Below the pieces are notes generated by a model that worked only from the letters and a program-made list of their open reading frames with translations, was not told the DNA's origin and ran no database searches. Positions 1-8,969 of a stretch of DNA of 8,969 bases are shown one piece after another; within the stretch, counting starts at the first letter, position 1; each line of letters starts with the position of its first letter. Both the position numbers and the translations under genes were made by a program. Source of the DNA: a virus (taxonomy: Duplodnaviria > Heunggongvirae > Uroviricota > Caudoviricetes); the IMG/VR virus record IMGVR_UViG_2681813269_000011; one strand, given 5' to 3'.

Positions 1-1630
1 CCTTCACGCCGTCGGTGACGGACTGGACCTCCACGCTGACCGGATTCCCCTGCCCGTCAACCAGGCTTATCAGCGTGGTGCCGGAGGATGGCAGCGTGAT
101 TTCACGGTCGAGCGTCAGCGTCCGGGTCTGGCTGTTTACCGCCAGCACGCGCCCGCCGATGCGGATACCGGCATAGTCATCATCGCAGATTTCAATGACA
201 TCGCCCGGTACATGACGAAGCCCTTCAGCACCCACGCTGAAATCCACGGTCTGCGTCTCCAGCAGTTCCGTTTTAATCAGCCACAGCCCGGCGCGGTGTG
301 CCTGCCCCCGGCTGGTACAGCCAAAGGCATCCATCTTCGTGACGTTACGACCGTAACGGGCAATGGCCTGCGTGTCCTCCACAAGCTCTGTTGCCGTCTC
401 CCAGCCGTTGTTCGGGTCAATCCAGTTCACCTCAACGGCATTATGGCGGTCTTTCAGGGCGCTGAAACTGTAGCGGAACGGCGCGCCATCATCCGGCATC
501 ACCACATTACTGCGGTTATAGGTCCACACCTTATCCGATGGTCGGTCCTGCACGAACGTCAGCGTCTGCCCGTTCCATACCGGCATACAGCGCATCGCCG
601 AGCAGAAATCACTGAGCACATCCCACGCCTTACGCTGTGTGGTCAGGTACGCATTACAGGTGATGCGCGGCTCCGTGCCGCCAAAACCGTCCGGCACCGA
701 CTGGTCACAGTACTGGCCGATGACATACAGCGCCCATTTATCCACATCTGCCGCACCAAGACGTTTCCCCATGCCGTAGCGCGGATGGGTCAGCATATCC
801 CACAGACACCAGGCCATGTTGTTGCTGTATGCCGGTTTAAACGTCCCGTCCCAGATACCGCTGTATTGCCGCGTCTGCGGGTTATAGTTCGACGGCACCT
901 GCAGAATGCGCCCGCGAAGATGATAATTACGGCTCACCTGCTGGCTGCCGAACTGCTCCGAATCCACCTGCACGCCGACCAGTGCCGTGTTCGGGTAGCA
1001 CTGTTTCACATCGATGATTTCGGTGTATGACGACCAGAGCGTTTTGTTCTGCAGCTGGTCTGTGGTGCTGTCCGGTGTCATCCTGCGCATCCGGATATTA
1101 AACGGGCGCGGCGGCAGGTTATCCACCACCACCGAGGCCAGATACTGCGACGTGGTTTTGCCCTTAATGGTGATGTCTTTTTCTGTCACCCAGCCACCGT
1201 TACGTTGTATCTGAACCAGCAGGCGGACTTCCGACGGATTCCGGTCACCCTTTGAGGTGGTTTCCACCAGTGCCTGCACACCGAAGGTAAAGCGCAGACG
1301 GTCGATGTTTGCAGACGTGATGGTCCGGGTGATCGGCGTGTCGTATTTCACTTCCGTACCCAGCACCGTCTCGGAGCCGGAGGATTCAAATCCCTCCGGC
1401 GGTGACTGCTCCTGCTCACCGGCCCGGAACACCACCGTGACGCCGGATATATTGGTATTCCCCTCACTGTCCAGCACCGGCGTACTGTTCAGCAGCACGC
1501 TTTTTAATCCATCCACCGGACCTTCAACCGGCCCTTCGCTGATGGCATCGATCACACTCAGCAGCTGCGTGGACTTCAGGTTGTCCTTCGCTTCGCGCGG
1601 GGTATGCCCCTTACTGCTGCCTTTACCCAT
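1..1630 (-). CDS. J: Tail-tip host-specificity protein J, copy A, N-terminal 543 codons; 3' end continues beyond the left window edge
   Basis: ATG at 1628-1630 (minus strand) with GGAG 8 nt upstream (ctcc at 1639-1642 on plus). Collinear with copy B at offset 2764. I hand-checked this frame from 1031 to position 2 and found no stop. Absent from the ORF track because no stop lies inside the window. Carries allele [11 protein letters not shown] like copy C, not ISTGG like copy B. Confidence 0.85.
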   Translation of the reverse strand, partial: MGKGSSKGHTPREAKDNLKSTQLLSVIDAISEGPVEGPVDGLKSVLLNSTPVLDSEGNTNISGVTVVFRAGEQEQSPPEGFESSGSETVLGTEVKYDTPITRTITSANIDRLRFTFGVQALVETTSKGDRNPSEVRLLVQIQRNGGWVTEKDITIKGKTTSQYLASVVVDNLPPRPFNIRMRRMTPDSTTDQLQNKTLWSSYTEIIDVKQCYPNTALVGVQVDSEQFGSQQVSRNYHLRGRILQVPSNYNPQTRQYSGIWDGTFKPAYSNNMAWCLWDMLTHPRYGMGKRLGAADVDKWALYVIGQYCDQSVPDGFGGTEPRITCNAYLTTQRKAWDVLSDFCSAMRCMPVWNGQTLTFVQDRPSDKVWTYNRSNVVMPDDGAPFRYSFSALKDRHNAVEVNWIDPNNGWETATELVEDTQAIARYGRNVTKMDAFGCTSRGQAHRAGLWLIKTELLETQTVDFSVGAEGLRHVPGDVIEICDDDYAGIRIGGRVLAVNSQTRTLTLDREITLPSSGTTLISLVDGQGNPVSVEVQSVTDGVK

Positions 1631-1640
1631 TCGTCATGCT

Positions 1641-1672
1641 CCATAAACGACAAAACCGCCCGGAGGCGGTTT
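1641..1672 (-). terminator. Terminator-like hairpin in I-J intergenic region (copy A): stem aaaccgcc/ggcggttt, 4-nt loop, then TTTTGTCGTTT on minus strand
   Basis: Stem 1653-1660 pairs with 1665-1672; the minus-strand transcript would read AAACCGCC-UCCG-GGCGGUUU-UGUCGUUUAUGG, running into the J Shine-Dalgarno. Short GC core (5 bp), so terminator function is uncertain. Confidence 0.3.
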
Positions 1673-1690
1673 CACATAAAACATTTTGCA

Positions 1691-1705
1691 TCAGCGACCA
1701 ATCAC
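1691..1705 (-). pseudogene. I: Orphan remnant of I: last 4 codons plus stop (VIGR*), cut off at breakpoint 1705/1706
   Basis: Minus strand reads gtg att ggt cgc tga, identical to the end of intact I (4455-4469); upstream sequence (1706 onward) is unrelated in this orientation. Confidence 0.6.
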
Positions 1706-1914
1706 TGGCACCGAAAGCCAGAACTCCCCGTACACAGACAACGGATAACGGCAAACAGAACACCTATTTCTCCTCACTGGATAACATGGTTGCCCAGGGC
1801 AATGTTCTGCCGGTTCTGTACGGTGAAATGCGCGTGGGGTCACGCGTGGTTTCTCAGGAGATCAGCACGGCAGACGAAGGGGACGGTGGTCAGGTTGTGG
1901 TGATTGGTCGCTGA
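1706..1914 (+). pseudogene. I: I 3' fragment (about the last 69 codons) in inverted, plus-strand orientation
   Basis: Plus-strand translation ends ...APKARTPRTQTTDNGKQNTYFSSLDNMVAQGNVLPVLYGEMRVGSRVVSQEISTADEGDGGQVVVIGR*, the C-terminus of the intact I at 4455-4663 on the opposite strand. Lacks the I start; ORF-track ORF 1636-1914 begins at an ATG in antisense intergenic DNA. Confidence 0.85.
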
Positions 1915-1932
1915 TGCAAAATGTTTTATGTG

Positions 1933-1964
1933 AAACCGCCTCCGGGCGGTTTTGTCGTTTATGG
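1933..1964 (+). terminator. Inverted copy of the I-J intergenic hairpin, now on the plus strand upstream of the plus-strand J fragment
   Basis: aaaccgcc (1933-1940), loop tccg, ggcggttt (1945-1952), then tgtcgtttatgg; mirror image of 1641-1672. Confidence 0.3.
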
Positions 1965-1974
1965 AGCATGACGA

Positions 1975-2574
1975 ATGGGTAAAGGCAGCAGTAAGGGGCA
2001 TACCCCGCGCGAAGCGAAGGACAACCTGAAGTCCACGCAGCTGCTGAGTGTGATCGATGCCATCAGCGAAGGGCCGGTTGAAGGTCCGGTGGATGGATTA
2101 AAAAGCGTGCTGCTGAACAGTACGCCGGTGCTGGACAGTGAGGGGAATACCAATATATCCGGCGTCACGGTGGTGTTCCGGGCCGGTGAGCAGGAGCAGT
2201 CACCGCCGGAGGGATTTGAATCCTCCGGCTCCGAGACGGTGCTGGGTACGGAAGTGAAATACGACACGCCGATCACCCGGACCATCACGTCTGCAAACAT
2301 CGACCGTCTGCGCTTTACCTTCGGTGTGCAGGCACTGGTGGAAACCACCTCAAAGGGTGACCGGAATCCGTCGGAAGTCCGCCTGCTGGTTCAGATACAA
2401 CGTAACGGTGGCTGGGTGACAGAAAAAGACATCACCATTAAGGGCAAAACCACGTCGCAGTATCTGGCCTCGGTGGTGGTGGATAACCTGCCGCCGCGAC
2501 CGTTCAATATCCGGATGCGCAGGATGACACCGGACAGCACCACAGACCAGCTGCAGAACAAAACGCTCTGGTCG
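1975..2574 (+). pseudogene. J: J 5' fragment, codons 1-200, on the plus strand (inverted duplicate); ORF runs on into antisense J sequence to 2940
   Basis: ATG at 1975 with GGAG at 1963-1966; translation MGKGSSKGHTPREAKDNLKSTQLL...[11 protein letters not shown] is identical to the copy B N-terminus for 200 residues, then becomes antisense-derived sequence ([10 protein letters not shown]...). Confidence 0.85.
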
Positions 2575-4394
2575 CCGTCAAAGTGCGCCCCGTTATCCAC
2601 GATGGCTTCTTTTCCCGGTACATGCTGCACGGCAGTGATGGCATACGTGCCGTCATCGTTCTCACGGATACTCACGCAGCGGAACAGGCGCTGGCGCAGC
2701 GTCGGCAGCTTCAGCCCCCACACGCTGTATTCTGCAACGCCGTCAGGAACCCGGCTCACTTTCACCTTCACGCCGTCGGTGACGGACTGGACCTCCACGC
2801 TGACCGGATTGCCACTTCCGTCAACCAGGCTTATCAGCGTGGTACCGGAGGATGGCAGCGTGATTTCACGGTCGAGCGTCAGCGTCCGGGTCTGGCTGTT
2901 CACCGCCAGTACGCGACCACCGGTGCTGATACCGGCATAATCATCATCGCAGATTTCAATGACATCACCCGGTACATGGCGAAGCCCTTCTGCGCCCACG
3001 CTGAAGTCCACGGTCTGCGTTTCCAGCAGTTCTGTTTTAATCAGCCACAGCCCGGCGCGGTGTGCCTGCCCCCGGCTGGTACAGCCAAAGGCATCCATCT
3101 TCGTGACATTACGACCGTAACGGGCAATGGCCTGCGTATCCTCCACAAGCTCTGTCGCCGTCTCCCAGCCGTTATCTGGGTCAATCCAGTTCACCTCAAC
3201 GGCATTATGGCGGTCCTTCAGGGCGCTGAAGCTGTAGCGGAATGGTGCGCCATCATCCGGCATCACCACATTACTGCGGTTATAGGTCCACACCTTATCC
3301 GATGGTCGGTCCTGCACGAACGTCAGCGTCTGCCCGTTCCATACCGGCATACAGCGCATCGCCGAGCAGAAATCACTGAGCACATCCCACGCCTTGCGCT
3401 GTGTGGTCAGCCAGGCATTACAGGTGATGCGCGGCTCCGTGCTGCCAAAGCCGTCCGGCACCGACTGGTCACAGTACTGGCCGATGACATACAGCGCCCA
3501 TTTATCCACATCTGCCGCACCAAGACGTTTCCCCATGCCGTAGCGCGGATGAGTGAGCATGTCCCACAGACACCAGGCCATGTTGTTGCTGTATGCCGGT
3601 TTTAACGTTCCGTCCCAGATACCGCTGTATTGCCGCGTCTGCGGGTTATAGTTCGACGGCACCTGCAGAATGCGCCCGCGAAGATGATAATTACGGCTCA
3701 CCTGCTGGCTGCCGAACTGCTCCGAATCCACCTGCACGCCGACCAGTGCCGTGTTCGGGTAGCACTGTTTCACATCGATGATTTCGGTGTATGACGACCA
3801 GAGCGTTTTGTTCTGCAGCTGGTCTGTGGTGCTGTCCGGTGTCATCCTGCGCATCCGGATATTGAACGGTCGCGGCGGCAGGTTATCCACCACCACCGAG
3901 GCCAGATACTGCGACGTGGTTTTGCCCTTAATGGTGATGTCTTTTTCTGTCACCCAGCCACCGTTACGTTGTATCTGAACCAGCAGGCGGACTTCCGACG
4001 GATTCCGGTCACCCTTTGAGGTGGTTTCCACCAGTGCCTGCACACCGAAGGTAAAGCGCAGACGGTCGATGTTTGCAGACGTGATGGTCCGGGTGATCGG
4101 CGTGTCGTATTTCACTTCCGTACCCAGCACCGTCTCGGAGCCGGAGGATTCAAATCCCTCCGGCGGTGACTGCTCCTGCTCACCGGCCCGGAACACCACC
4201 GTGACGCCGGATATATTGGTATTCCCCTCACTGTCCAGCACCGGCGTACTGTTCAGCAGCACGCTTTTTAATCCATCCACCGGACCTTCAACCGGCCCTT
4301 CGCTGATGGCATCGATCACACTCAGCAGCTGCGTGGACTTCAGGTTGTCCTTCGCTTCGCGCGGGGTATGCCCCTTACTGCTGCCTTTACCCAT
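2391..4394 (-). CDS. J: Tail-tip host-specificity protein J, copy B, disrupted: authentic J residues 1-610 followed by 57 antisense-derived residues
   Basis: 667-aa ORF starting MGKGSSKGHTPREAKDNLKSTQLLSVIDAISEGP, which is the lambda gpJ N-terminus as I recall it. Matches J through ...GAHFDGDQS, then reads VLFCSWSVV..., which equals antisense ORF 1014-1214. Breakpoint within 2564-2574. Native RBS GGAG 8 nt upstream (ctcc at 4403-4406). Confidence 0.9.
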   Translation of the reverse strand: MGKGSSKGHTPREAKDNLKSTQLLSVIDAISEGPVEGPVDGLKSVLLNSTPVLDSEGNTNISGVTVVFRAGEQEQSPPEGFESSGSETVLGTEVKYDTPITRTITSANIDRLRFTFGVQALVETTSKGDRNPSEVRLLVQIQRNGGWVTEKDITIKGKTTSQYLASVVVDNLPPRPFNIRMRRMTPDSTTDQLQNKTLWSSYTEIIDVKQCYPNTALVGVQVDSEQFGSQQVSRNYHLRGRILQVPSNYNPQTRQYSGIWDGTLKPAYSNNMAWCLWDMLTHPRYGMGKRLGAADVDKWALYVIGQYCDQSVPDGFGSTEPRITCNAWLTTQRKAWDVLSDFCSAMRCMPVWNGQTLTFVQDRPSDKVWTYNRSNVVMPDDGAPFRYSFSALKDRHNAVEVNWIDPDNGWETATELVEDTQAIARYGRNVTKMDAFGCTSRGQAHRAGLWLIKTELLETQTVDFSVGAEGLRHVPGDVIEICDDDYAGISTGGRVLAVNSQTRTLTLDREITLPSSGTTLISLVDGSGNPVSVEVQSVTDGVKVKVSRVPDGVAEYSVWGLKLPTLRQRLFRCVSIRENDDGTYAITAVQHVPGKEAIVDNGAHFDGDQSVLFCSWSVVLSGVILRIRILNGRGGRLSTTTEARYCDVVLPLMVMSFSVTQPPLRCI

Positions 4395-4404
4395 TCGTCA
4401 TGCT

Positions 4405-4436
4405 CCATAAACGACAAAACCGCCCGGAGGCGGTTT
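4405..4436 (-). terminator. Terminator-like hairpin in the native I-J intergenic region, followed by U-rich tract overlapping the J RBS
   Basis: Stem 4417-4424 pairs with 4429-4436, loop cgga; on the minus strand this is followed by TTTTGTCGTTTATGG. Same element as 1641-1672. Confidence 0.3.
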
Positions 4437-4454
4437 CACATAAAACATTTTGCA

Positions 4455-5126
4455 TCAGCGACCAATCACCACAACCTGACCACCGTCCCCTTCGTCTGCC
4501 GTGCTGATCTCCTGAGAAACCACGCGTGACCCCACGCGCATTTCACCGTACAGAACCGGCAGAACATTGCCCTGGGCAACCATGTTATCCAGTGAGGAGA
4601 AATAGGTGTTCTGTTTGCCGTTATCCGTTGTCTGTGTACGGGGAGTTCTGGCTTTCGGTGCCAGCATCTGCGCCACACCACCGAGCACCATACTGGCACC
4701 GAGAGAAAACAGGATGCCGGTCATACCACCGGTCCCAATGGCTGCCCCCCATGCTGCAAGGGTGGCTCCGGCGGTAAAGAATGATCCGGCAATGGCGGCA
4801 GCCCCCAGGACAATCTGGAATACGCCACCTGACTTGGCCCCGGCGACTCTGGGAACAATATGAATCACAGCGCCATCAGGCAGAGTCTCATGTAACTGCG
4901 CCGTTAACCCGGACGTGCTGACGTCCCGCCCGGCAATCCGTACCTGATACCAGCCGTCGCTCAGTTTCTGACGAAACGCCGGGAGCTGTGTGGCCAGTGC
5001 CCGGATGGCTTCAGCCCCCGTTTTCACACGAAGGTCGATGCGGCGACCAAATCGTTGTAAATCCCCGTAAAGGCAGATGCGCGCCATGCCCGGTGACGCC
5101 AGAGGGAGTGTGTGCGTCGCTGCCAT
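4455..5126 (-). CDS. I: Tail assembly protein I (gpI-like, 223 aa)
   Basis: Intact 223-aa ORF MAATHTLPLASPGMARICLYGDLQRFGRRIDLRV...GGQVVVIGR matching lambda gpI as recalled, with Gly/Ala-rich hydrophobic central segment. Overlaps the K 3' end by 103 nt and lies 60 nt upstream of J. Confidence 0.95.
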   Translation of the reverse strand: MAATHTLPLASPGMARICLYGDLQRFGRRIDLRVKTGAEAIRALATQLPAFRQKLSDGWYQVRIAGRDVSTSGLTAQLHETLPDGAVIHIVPRVAGAKSGGVFQIVLGAAAIAGSFFTAGATLAAWGAAIGTGGMTGILFSLGASMVLGGVAQMLAPKARTPRTQTTDNGKQNTYFSSLDNMVAQGNVLPVLYGEMRVGSRVVSQEISTADEGDGGQVVVIGR

Positions 5127-5767
5127 TTGTCGGTGTACCTCTCTCGTTTGCTCAGTTGTTCAGGAATATGGTGCAGCAGCTCGCCGTCGCCGCAGTAAAT
5201 TGCGGCGTGATTCGGCACTGATGAACCAAAACAGCACAGCAGCACATCGCCCGGCTGTGCCGCTGACAACGGCACCTGATACAGCCCCGTCGCCTCCAGA
5301 TTATCCAGATAGAGATTCTGGCCGTTACGCCACCAGTCATCCTCACGATAAAAGTCCGGCATCTCAATCCCCGCCAGATGATAAGCATCCCGGAACAGTG
5401 TGTAACAGTCCGTCACACCGTGCTCAAAGCGCCGCCCGGTGAGATGCGGCACACAGCGGAACTTATGAATCGTCCCCCGGCAGACCAGCCACCACGGCAA
5501 ATCACTCTGCACCTGCAGCCGCCGGTCGGCCTCACTCAGCCAGGGCAGACCACCGGGGTGGCTGTGGACCAGCGCCACAATCTCACCCTGCATTTCTGCC
5601 TGCAGCCAGTCTTCCGGCGACATACGGAAATACGCCTCCGGCTCACCGGAGATATTCACGCAGGGAAAATATCTTTCCCCCTCCGGCGTGCTTACCACGA
5701 AGCCGCACGACTCCGCTGGCGCACATCGCCGGGCGTGCGCCAGAATCGCTGATTCTGTCTGTGTCAT
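5024..5767 (-). CDS. K: Tail assembly protein K (gpK-like) with JAMM/MPN and NlpC/P60 signatures
   Basis: 247-aa ORF MTQTESAILAHARRCAPAESCGFVV... with an exact JAMM motif H68-x-H70-x7-S78-x2-D81 (HSHPGGLPWLSEAD) and NlpC/P60-type Cys121 (GVTDCYTLF) and His187 (NHAAIY). Start is 5 nt after the L stop. Confidence 0.93.
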   Translation of the reverse strand: MTQTESAILAHARRCAPAESCGFVVSTPEGERYFPCVNISGEPEAYFRMSPEDWLQAEMQGEIVALVHSHPGGLPWLSEADRRLQVQSDLPWWLVCRGTIHKFRCVPHLTGRRFEHGVTDCYTLFRDAYHLAGIEMPDFYREDDWWRNGQNLYLDNLEATGLYQVPLSAAQPGDVLLCCFGSSVPNHAAIYCGDGELLHHIPEQLSKRERYTDKWQRRTHSLWRHRAWRASAFTGIYNDLVAASTFV

Positions 5768-5772
5768 GGGAT

Positions 5773-6471
5773 TTACTGCGAAAGTTTGTTAATGGAAAGG
5801 AAGCCGCCAAAGTTGCCGACGTTATTGCGGAACTTACAACCGCTCAGGCATTTGCTGCATTTATCCTTCGTGATATCGGACGTTGGCTGGTCATATTCAT
5901 CCGCGACAGCCGGACCGCTATAACCGCACTCGTCACCGCGATAGGTCCAGGTGCAGGTATTGGCCAGCATGATACGTCCCGGAAAAACAGCGCCATCCGT
6001 TTCCGTCGGCGTGGACAGTACAAAGGAGGCACTCACCGCGCTCAGTTCGCTGCACTGCTCAATGCGCCAGCGGCTGATCACCTCCTGCTCCGGATCGGCG
6101 TAACTGTTTCCGTTGACGAAGTTCACCGCATCCAGAAAACGGGCGTAAACCTTACGCCGGACCACCGTTCCGCCGACCAGACTCTGCAGATCTTCCGCCA
6201 TCCCGGTGACCATACCGTACAGGTTAGAAACCGTCAGCGTGGGGCGCGTACTGGTGCCTTTGCCATTCAGTTCAAAACCGCTCCCCTGAATGGGATACGG
6301 CTGATACTGTCGCCCCTGCCAGGTGACCGGCTCACCTTTTTCGTTCTGCTCATTACAGAAAAAATAACGTTCTCCACCGACCTCTGTCAGGTCGATTTCC
6401 CAGAGCACCACGCTGGCCGACTGCTCCGCACGGGTGCATTCATTCAGTGTTTCCTGCCGGATATCCTGCAT
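5773..6471 (-). CDS. L: Tail tip protein L (gpL-like, 232 aa)
   Basis: 232-aa ORF MQDIRQETLNECTRAEQSASVVLWEIDLTEVGGERYFFCNEQNEKGEP... ending in the Cys-rich motif DKCSKCLSGCKF, matching lambda gpL as recalled. ATG overlaps the upstream stop by 1 nt (TGATG); AGGTGG lies 7 nt upstream. Confidence 0.95.
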   Translation of the reverse strand: MQDIRQETLNECTRAEQSASVVLWEIDLTEVGGERYFFCNEQNEKGEPVTWQGRQYQPYPIQGSGFELNGKGTSTRPTLTVSNLYGMVTGMAEDLQSLVGGTVVRRKVYARFLDAVNFVNGNSYADPEQEVISRWRIEQCSELSAVSASFVLSTPTETDGAVFPGRIMLANTCTWTYRGDECGYSGPAVADEYDQPTSDITKDKCSKCLSGCKFRNNVGNFGGFLSINKLSQ

Positions 6472-6516
6472 CAGTTCACCACCTGTTCAAACTCTGCGCT
6501 GAACTCAACACGCAGC
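6471..6516 (-). pseudogene. M: M 3' remnant, last ~15 codons only ([14 protein letters not shown])
   Basis: Minus-strand frame ending at TGA (6471-6473) reads ...[14 protein letters not shown], which I recall as the C-terminus of lambda gpM (109 aa). Homology stops abruptly at about 6516/6517, where J-derived sequence begins in another frame. Boundary is +/-3 nt because it is inferred from the protein. Confidence 0.6.
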
Positions 6517-8969
6517 AATGGTGGGGGCCGTCAGGCGTTTCAGGAACACGTCGTTCATGAATATCTGATCGCCCTGACCAACAAACATCGGTTTTGTGTT
6601 GCCATTCGCAGGATTAACCATCGCAATCCTGTCCGCCGCCAGCAGCACCTGACTCTGCATGCCGTCAGGGGTGTTCTCAATACCGGCACCAATACCCGCG
6701 ATATAAAGGCGTCCGTCCTGCATCTGCTGCAGCTTCACAGCCCACATGCTGTTCAGGTTATTATTTGTATCAACCTGAACCTTCTGTATCTGCTGAATTG
6801 CCGCACTCTGGTCTTCCAGTTTCTTATTGACGGTCTGCGTGATTTCATTGCTGACATCCGTAATGGACGTCCTGATTTCAGCCAGGTCAGGCGCAAGCTG
6901 ACCGTTATCAATCTGCGTCCACAGCTCCTGAGCCAGATGGGTTTTCCCTATCTCGCCTTTGAAAAAATCCAGATAGCCGGATGCATCATCACTCGGCTGA
7001 CCAACAGCCTCCACGAATGCCGATTTGCCAACGGTGTTCACACTGCGAACGTAAAAATAATAATCATGGCCCGGTTTGATATTGATACTGGCGGCTATCC
7101 AGTACAGCGCCGTGCCAAGATAGCGGGCTGTGGTTTCAACCTGCCTGATATCGGTAATCCGCTTTTCCGAGAACCAGAACTCAAACTGTACCGTCGGGTC
7201 ATAAACGGCAAGATGCGGCGTGGCGGTTATCTGAAAATAGCCCGGCGTCAGCTCAATCCGCGACGGCACTGCAGGTGCGGCAATCCGGAACGATACCGAT
7301 GCCGGATCGCCCTGCTGCCCCCACGCATTTACCGCCCGGACTGTCAGCCTGTAGTTCCCCAGCGCCAGCTGCCTGAAGCGGTATGCGGTTTCCGCCGTCC
7401 GGGCCGTGCTGACCAGCCGCTCACTGCCGTCATCCGCTGCCACGGTCAGGCGAAGCAGGAAACTCACGCCCTTCACCACCTTCGGCGTGTCCCAGCGGGC
7501 CAGTACCTGATACTCCCCGCTGTCTGCGGTGACTTCGGCAGTCAGGTGCTGTACCGCTGGCGGCGTGACACCATTCACCGTGCCGCTCTGGTCGCCGTCA
7601 AAGTGCGCCCCGTTATCCACGATGGCTTCTTTTCCCGGTACATGCTGCACGGCAGTGATGGCATACGTGCCGTCATCGTTCTCACGGATACTCACGCAGC
7701 GGAACAGGCGCTGGCGCAACGTCGGCAACTTCAGCCCCCACACGCTGTATTCTGCAACGCCGTCAGGAACACGGCTCACTTTTACCTTCACGCCGTCGGT
7801 GACGGACTGGACCTCCACGCTGACCGGATTGCCACTTCCGTCAACCAGGCTTATCAGCGTGGTACCGGAGGATGGCAGCGTGATTTCACGGTCGAGCGTC
7901 AGCGTCCGGGTCTGGCTGTTTACCGCCAGCACGCGCCCGCCGATGCGGATACCGGCATAGTCATCATCGCAGATTTCAATGACATCGCCCGGTACATGGC
8001 GAAGCCCTTCAGCACCCACGCTGAAGTCCACGGTCTGCGTTTCCAGCAGTTCTGTTTTAATCAGCCACAGCCCGGCGCGGTGTGCCTGCCCCCGGCTGGT
8101 ACAGCCAAAGGCATCCATCTTCGTGACGTTACGACCGTAACGGGCAATGGCCTGCGTGTCCTCCACAAGCTCTGTTGCCGTCTCCCAGCCGTTGTTCGGG
8201 TCAATCCAGTTCACCTCAACGGCATTATGGCGGTCCTTCAGGGCGCTGAAGCTGTAGCGGAATGGTGCGCCATCATCCGGCATCACCACATTACTGCGGT
8301 TATAGGTCCACACCTTATCCGACGGTCGGTCCTGCACGAACGTCAGCGTCTGCCCGTTCCATACCGGCATACAGCGCATCGCCGAGCAGAAATCACTGAG
8401 CACATCCCACGCCTTACGCTGTGTGGTCAGGTACGCATTACAGGTGATGCGCGGCTCCGTGCCGCCAAATCCGTCCGTCACTGACTGGTCGCAGTACTGG
8501 CCGATGACATACAGCGCCCATTTGTCCACATCTGCCGCACCAAGACGTTTCCCCATGCCGTAGCGCGGATGGGTCAGCATATCCCACAGACACCAGGCCA
8601 TGTTGTTGCTGTATGCCGGTTTAAACGTCCCGTCCCAGATACCGCTGTATTGCCGCGTCTGCGGGTTATAGTTCGACGGCACCTGCAGAATGCGCCCGCG
8701 AAGATGATAATTGCGACTCACCTGCTGGTTACCGAACTGCTCTGAATCCACCTGCACGCCGACCAGCGCCGTGTTCGGGTAGCACTGTTTCACATCGATG
8801 ATTTCGGTGTATGACGACCAGAGCGTTTTGTTCTGCAGCTGGTCTGTGGTGCTGTCCGGTGTCATCCTGCGCATCCGGATATTGAACGGTCGCGGCGGCA
8901 GGTTACCCACCACCACCGAGGCCAGATACTGCGAAGTGGTTTTGCCCTTAATGGTGATGTCTTTTTCCG
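6505..8969 (-). CDS. J: Tail-tip host-specificity protein J, copy C; 5' end beyond the right window edge, 3' end cut at the junction with the M remnant; about codons 150-969
   Basis: Open minus-strand frame from the window edge to the stop at 6505-6507; collinear with copy B at offset 5020 and intact through the region where B is broken (...[27 protein letters not shown]...). Ends ...[15 protein letters not shown] then AAC*, where lambda gpJ as recalled continues TSGGNPPAF. Confidence 0.9.

Follow-up and report, generated by a model that had tools for sequence, protein, structure and literature searches.

The abrupt inversion at positions 1705/1706 of the DNA studied here, together with the orphan stub of the tail gene I, the palindrome and the 92-aa open reading frame (ORF) that accompany it, probably arose as by-products of the sequencing and assembly of prophage tail genes present in several copies. 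The stretch analysed, referred to below as the window (8,969 nucleotides), is a whole draft contig in which three non-colinear joins and three alleles of gene J lie within 9 kb, with no independent support for the joins in the collections searched. The sequence-only reading had taken the position as a breakpoint in the genome, and a real genomic rearrangement is not supported. Its opposing case, an assembly join, now looks the more probable one from the sequence comparisons described here.

Origin and layout of the window

Exact look-up of two predicted products, of 667 and 92 aa, identified the window as the entire 8,969-bp contig CXNR01000286.1 of assembly GCA_001256515.1. The source is Shigella sonnei, in the form of a fragmented short-read draft, and the contig contains lambdoid tail genes only. 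All of its fragments derive from the tail-tip genes M-L-K-I-J of phage lambda (gpI, PF06805; gpJ, PF24801/PF13550 and others). The window was aligned to a canonical Escherichia coli prophage (reference L001), in which the gene order is lom-J-I-K-L-M-H. Relative to the canonical M-L-K-I-J order it consists of four blocks and three abrupt non-colinear joins, two of them inversions (1705/1706 and 2564-2574) and one direct (6517). The first three blocks constitute a forward-inverted-forward set of three overlapping copies. Blocks and joins are as follows.

1-1705, minus strand, forward block: from J codon 543 back to codon 1, then the intergenic region and, up to reference position 6973, the last 15 nt of I
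1705/1706, inversion (join 1): reference 6973 joined to 7168 on the opposite strand, 195 nt apart
1705-2574, inverted block: 3' end of I, the intergenic region and J codons 1-200
2564-2574, inversion (join 2): reference 6299 (inverted block) to 5068 (forward), with 11 nt shared, CGCTCTGGTCG
2564-6517, forward block: J codons ~607 to 1, I, K, L and the last 47 nt of M
6517, direct, duplication-type (join 3): reference 9021 (3' end of M) to 4001 (inside J), with 1 base shared
6517-8969, minus strand: internal J fragment, ~residues 149-966

Compared with the lambda tail tip, region 2575-6517 has the canonical make-up J(N-terminal)-I-K-L and shares 98% identity with many E. coli prophages. Within it, the following genes are in their usual arrangement.

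4455-6517, minus strand: intact canonical block with I, K, L and the 3' tip of M
4455-5027, or 4455-5126 with the upstream start, minus strand: I
5024-5767, minus strand: K
5773-6471, minus strand: L
6471-6517, minus strand: last 47 nt of M

Full-length I (4455-5126) matches the Lambda_tail_I domain PF06805 with 99.9 bits over residues 14-97. The gene has two candidate starts. The 190-aa frame (4455-5027) is the choice of gene callers, and the 223-aa frame (4455-5126) overlaps K by 103 nt, as in lambda. Public records of identical or near-identical loci give I as 180, 190, 200, 210 or 223 aa. Long stop-free ORFs run antisense to J and L, all on the plus strand: 212-1030 (272 aa), 2583-3605 (340 aa) and 5761-8484 (907 aa). 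The 272-aa ORF is a called gene in the protein index and has no Pfam match; all three are probably shadow ORFs of a coding region with 58% GC. Rfam gave zero matches anywhere in the window.

The join at 1705/1706 and its products

Upstream of the first J copy, only the last four codons of I (V-I-G-R) and its stop remain on the minus strand, at 1691-1705, as first noticed from the bare sequence. On the plus strand this stub reads TCAGCGACCAATCAC and is identical to 4455-4469. The direct match to the copy at 3795-4469 stops at 1705. At 1706 the sequence switches strand, and 1706-1914 is the reverse complement of 4455-4663 with zero mismatches, again in agreement with what had been described. The whole inverted match pairs 1705-2574 with 3795-4664 (870 nt, 100% identity). 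A single base, C1705, is common to both alignments, compared to 11 nt at 2564-2574, and the bases flanking the join have no further similarity. Statistically, this 1-nt overlap has no meaning, as ~40% of blunt joins would show 1 nt or more of apparent homology.

Chance can be taken as irrelevant to the matches around join 1, since they are exact and long. The join is free of errors over 599 nt on one side and 870 nt on the other, and sits in sequence that is invariant across ~30 aligned relatives. We considered whether the block ends are branch points of a de Bruijn graph, that is, polymorphic sites; for 1705/1706 this was rejected, as no polymorphic site lies at the join. No insertion sequence or other mobile-element end is present there. 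The join generates a palindrome with arms of 675 nt (1031-1705 and 1900-2574) that differ by 2 mismatches. It is perfect over 599 nt (1107-1705 and 1900-2498), with a spacer of 194 nt (1706-1899). The inverted block contains three parts.

1706-1914, plus strand: inverted 3' end of I, with 68 full codons and the stop, plus 2 nt of a Leu codon completed by C1705
1915-1974, plus strand: inverted I-J intergenic region, part of the 870-nt inverted block
1975-2574, plus strand: inverted J codons 1-200, part of the 870-nt inverted block; PF24801 is found in ORF 1975-2940

A plus-strand ORF of 92 aa (1636-1914) crosses the join. It had been described as 24 antisense-derived residues fused to the last 68 residues of gpI. 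The ORF exists, and the split has to be corrected to 23 and 69 residues, because the junction codon C|TG still codes for the native Leu. The 23 antisense residues lie opposite the J start and the intergenic region, and the last 69 residues are identical to the C-terminus of gpI. The product is deposited as CTD34248.1, 'Tail assembly protein I', from Shigella sonnei. Signals for its expression had been reported as not evident, and this was borne out: a scan of 1300-2300 on both strands revealed no sigma-70-like promoter, and no Shine-Dalgarno motif precedes ATG1636 in the upstream sequence GCCCCTTACTGCTGCCTTTACCCATTCGTC. The same region also lacks a terminator-like site on either strand.

The ORF has no Pfam family. 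Compared to lambda gpI, which carries PF06805, it keeps only the C-terminal 69 residues and lacks the domain. It also lacks the setting of I, between K and J on the same strand: no K gene lies upstream. Among ~15 billion proteins it forms a singleton cluster at 90% identity, from one contig only. Judged by its sequence, the 92-aa ORF is not functionally a member of the gpI family, and under every explanation considered below it bears no sign of being a gene.

The second join truncates a J copy and yields two chimeric ORFs, at 1975-2940 (plus strand, 321 aa) and 2391-4394 (minus strand, 667 aa). The 667-aa chimeric J is found on one contig only by exact protein look-up. At the third join, the last 47 nt of M adjoin an internal J position that is ~5.0 kb off in canonical coordinates. 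This gives a direct repeat with a period of 5,020 nt (2564-3947 versus 7584-8967, 96.8% identity).

The J alleles and the search for the joins in related loci

Gene J is represented three times in the window, always incompletely.

1-1630, minus strand: J copy A, first 543 codons, allele A, running off the left contig end; PF24801 and PF13550
1631-1690, minus strand: native I-J intergenic region of copy A, carrying a hairpin (stem 1653-1660/1665-1672) and, 9 nt ahead of the ATG, the ribosome-binding GGAG
2575-4394, minus strand: J copy B, codons 1 to ~607, allele B, truncated by join 2
2391-4394, minus strand: chimeric J ORF of 667 aa, deposited as CTD34257.1, 'host specificity protein', with ~60 antisense residues added
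6518-8969, minus strand: J copy C, internal, ~residues 149-966, allele C, running off the right contig end

Copy A is colinear with reference L001 over 5269-6898. As had been observed, it keeps its native GGAG ribosome-binding site and hairpin ahead of the start codon at 1630, and has no I gene upstream. The intergenic GC hairpin has the form AAACCGCC-loop-GGCGGTTT and occurs at 1912-1980 (plus strand), 1631-1705 (minus strand) and 4395-4469 (minus strand). A folding energy of -21.5 kcal/mol (z = -2.2) was obtained for the copy at 1912-1980, which is identical in sequence. The motif TTTTGTCGTTT lies 3' of the hairpin, directly upstream of the ribosome-binding site of J. The hairpin looks terminator- or attenuator-like within the late operon, as far as its sequence indicates; a simple terminator scan was negative.

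Between copies A and B there are 43 differences over 1705 positions, the majority of them in third codon positions. The three copies diverge pairwise by 2.5-3.2% in a patchwork pattern, and their synonymous and non-synonymous differences number 32:7, 24:4 and 33:9. This synonymous excess indicates that they are three natural alleles of functional phage genes, from different phages. The third-position and synonymous pattern excludes recent duplicates, decay in place and sequencing noise as sources of the differences.

Intact prophages carrying each of these alleles were sought in sister genomes and not found. Blocks 1-1704, 2575-6516 and 6518-8969 and the 870-nt I-J block were searched separately. 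The best identity to ~16,000 copies in complete E. coli genomes was at most 98.7%, and at most 98.2% for the first three of these blocks. Allele-specific 30-60-mers matched IMG/VR contigs, none of them a close relative. Exact look-ups of gpK and gpL led to very common E. coli loci of canonical order, with DNA identity of at most 98.2%. Compared to 62 related loci, the window is tiled by short exact matches with a mean of ~100 nt.

The joins themselves were then sought elsewhere. In 5,426 complete E. coli genomes, no match covered at least 80% of a 301-nt query across join 1, and its two halves matched separately. The 36-mer across this join, GCATCAGCGACCAATCACTGGCACCGAAAGCCAGAA, does not occur in any of the three contig collections (viral, species-representative genome, metagenome). 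Likewise, the viral and metagenome collections lack a 45-mer across join 2, and the viral and genome collections lack a 42-mer across join 3. Among the 62 related loci fetched, not one runs across any of these joins. Complete genomes of S. sonnei were covered indirectly, through the exact-protein index. Since S. sonnei is a clonal species with many sequenced genomes, an inherited structure should have recurred.

The related loci are not always intact. The 20 loci obtained by exact gpK/gpL look-up have the canonical order, with the exception of L012, a chromosome-level genome in which a K-to-J deletion removes I. In the H-M-L-K-I-J-lom region as a whole, 13 of 61 related loci contain abrupt non-colinear joins (L012, L017, L019-L021, L025, L037, L040, L042, L044, L046, L049 and L051). 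All of these are of the direct type, at different coordinates, and none is inverted. Repeated J fragments are seen in the IMG/VR contigs L025, L049 and L051. The joins in these 13 loci may reflect real prophage decay or draft-assembly artefacts of a similar kind.

Explanations for the join and their meaning

In the case of an assembly origin, the isolate would carry several prophages of the lambda type, with tail genes L, K, I and J that hardly differ between them, and a short-read assembly would partly collapse the copies. Greedy repeat resolution, scaffolding or gap closing, or a few fold-back chimeric molecules in the library, could then link fragments of different prophages into one 9-kb contig. 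At join 1, the end of a fragment with J and the I stub would have been attached to the reversed 870-nt I-J block that the prophages share. The stub, the 675-nt palindrome and the 92-aa ORF would thus be functionless by-products of this join.

Several observations favour this explanation. A single E. coli genome has a median of 4 matching places for lambdoid tail genes (up to 17), and for the 870-nt I-J block the median is 2 (up to 7). The presence of these tail genes in several near-identical copies per genome supports collapse and misjoining. Three alleles and three illegitimate joins in 9 kb are hard to produce biologically and easy for an assembler working on collapsed repeats. That join 1 is seen nowhere else in the collections searched points in the same direction.

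The way in which such genomes were assembled is also relevant. Page et al. (2016) assembled 299 public S. sonnei isolates, with a mean of 405 contigs (PMC5320598). The Sanger pipeline used Velvet, SSPACE with as few as five linking read pairs and then 120 rounds of GapFiller, on fragments of 300-500 bp; the authors warn that such greedy tools 'can lead to false joins', and count 4-10 misassemblies in each benchmark genome (PMC5320598). In a portion of the supplement of that paper, the S. sonnei sets carry prefixes from CXFG to CXOG, the accession block to which CXNR belongs, and CXNR was not found among the entries in that portion (PMC5320598). The accession gave no matches in literature full text. 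We infer that the assembly came from the Sanger Velvet/SSPACE/GapFiller pipeline. The contig crosses three copies of an exact repeat of 599-870 nt, longer than the 300-500-bp fragments, so that no read pair of such a library could span them.

The contig thus resembles false joins in Velvet/SSPACE/GapFiller drafts (PMC5320598, PMC3446322) in being short and made of repeated lambdoid genes only, in combining several alleles with several unconfirmed non-colinear joins, and in crossing exact repeats larger than the library fragments. It differs in that the 1-nt join 1 falls outside the documented overlap rules. Gap closure by GapFiller needs an overlap of at least 10 nt (Boetzer & Pirovano 2012, PMC3446322). 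The 11-nt overlap at join 2, just over this 10-nt default, fits the rule and hints that join 2 may be a gap-closing product; for join 1 the closure rule was rejected as the cause.

Three features of join 1 count against an assembly origin. An overlap of 1 nt corresponds neither to an edge of a de Bruijn graph nor to a GapFiller closure. The join is clean and away from any polymorphic or branch site. Finally, its geometry, with the two points on opposite strands and 195 nt apart, is that of a genuine fold-back, which is also possible in vivo. Therefore either some step joined contigs bluntly or there were reads that contained the join. Such reads, if present, could be in vitro fold-back chimeras or the trace of a real fold-back event in the isolate. 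Fold-back chimeras have been documented in sonicated libraries, where they form at inverted repeats (Chen et al. 2024, PMC10908179). As in those chimeric reads (PMC10908179; Haile et al. 2019, PMC6344851), the two points of join 1 lie on opposite strands and, at 195 nt apart, within one library fragment. However, they share 1 nt here, whereas the published chimeras form at inverted-repeat or palindromic sequence, and such molecules are normally rare reads that assemblers discard.

The main alternative, which we regard as rather unlikely, is a real fold-back inverted duplication, private to the isolate, produced by snap-back or template switching in the tail module of a lambdoid prophage. Read from the other strand, a nascent strand would have been extended over the 3' end of I as far as reference position 7168, changed there to the opposite strand at a point 195 nt back, and returned across the I stop and the J start. 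A second switch at the 11-nt homology at 2564-2574 would then have restored the forward orientation, leaving the I stub and the 92-aa ORF as inert scars. The forward-inverted-forward arrangement, the 194-nt spacer and the 1-nt and 11-nt junction homologies match replication-based template switching. That the inverted block matches its parent at all 870 nt (100%) fits a recent event, and the non-colinear joins in the related loci indicate that prophage tails do rearrange; however, none of those joins is inverted.

The arrangement recalls the tandem inversion duplication (TID) that Kugelberg et al. reportedly described in Salmonella enterica in 2010. Like TID and MMBIR/FoSTeS products, the window has three overlapping copies in forward-inverted-forward order, with short or no homology at the inversion joins. 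Unlike them, its outer copies are different natural alleles, and there are an additional join and a third allele. The 43 differences between the outer forward copies are incompatible with one locus, unless the assembler changed from one allele to another as well. Identity is complete only across the inner 599-870 nt, and the copies are not near-identical throughout, as an origin from one locus would have it. Moreover, the join at 6517 is unrelated to the inversion and brings a third allele into the same 9 kb. No join was seen in the other genomes and contigs searched, and the chimeric proteins of joins 1 and 2 are on this contig only. Exact repeats of 599-870 nt are not legitimately resolvable by short reads. 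In contrast to TID, the structure is not known to come from a context of selection or amplification. Taken as a whole, a real, private template-switch rearrangement with several junctions, in which a chromosome tolerates the 675-nt palindrome and its spacer, is unlikely.

Shigella prophage remnants are often scrambled, and the public record names the ORF 'Tail assembly protein I', as would suit a stable structure inherited within a degenerate prophage remnant of an S. sonnei lineage, with the junction ORF as a conserved truncated gpI-like gene; however, the singleton status of that ORF, the confinement of the 667-aa chimeric J to one contig, the absence of the 36-mer from all three collections, the lack of PF06805, of a ribosome-binding site and of a promoter-like site, and the lack of a mobile-element end at join 1 make this highly improbable, and an inherited functional element can be all but dismissed.

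Little of biological consequence depends on the outcome. If join 1 is an assembly artefact, as we consider probable, it is a matter of database hygiene: CTD34248.1 and CTD34257.1 are chimeric, yet publicly listed under normal phage names, and scans of draft assemblies will go on flagging such contigs as rearrangements. If it is real, the window would be a modest natural case of fold-back inverted duplication in a prophage.
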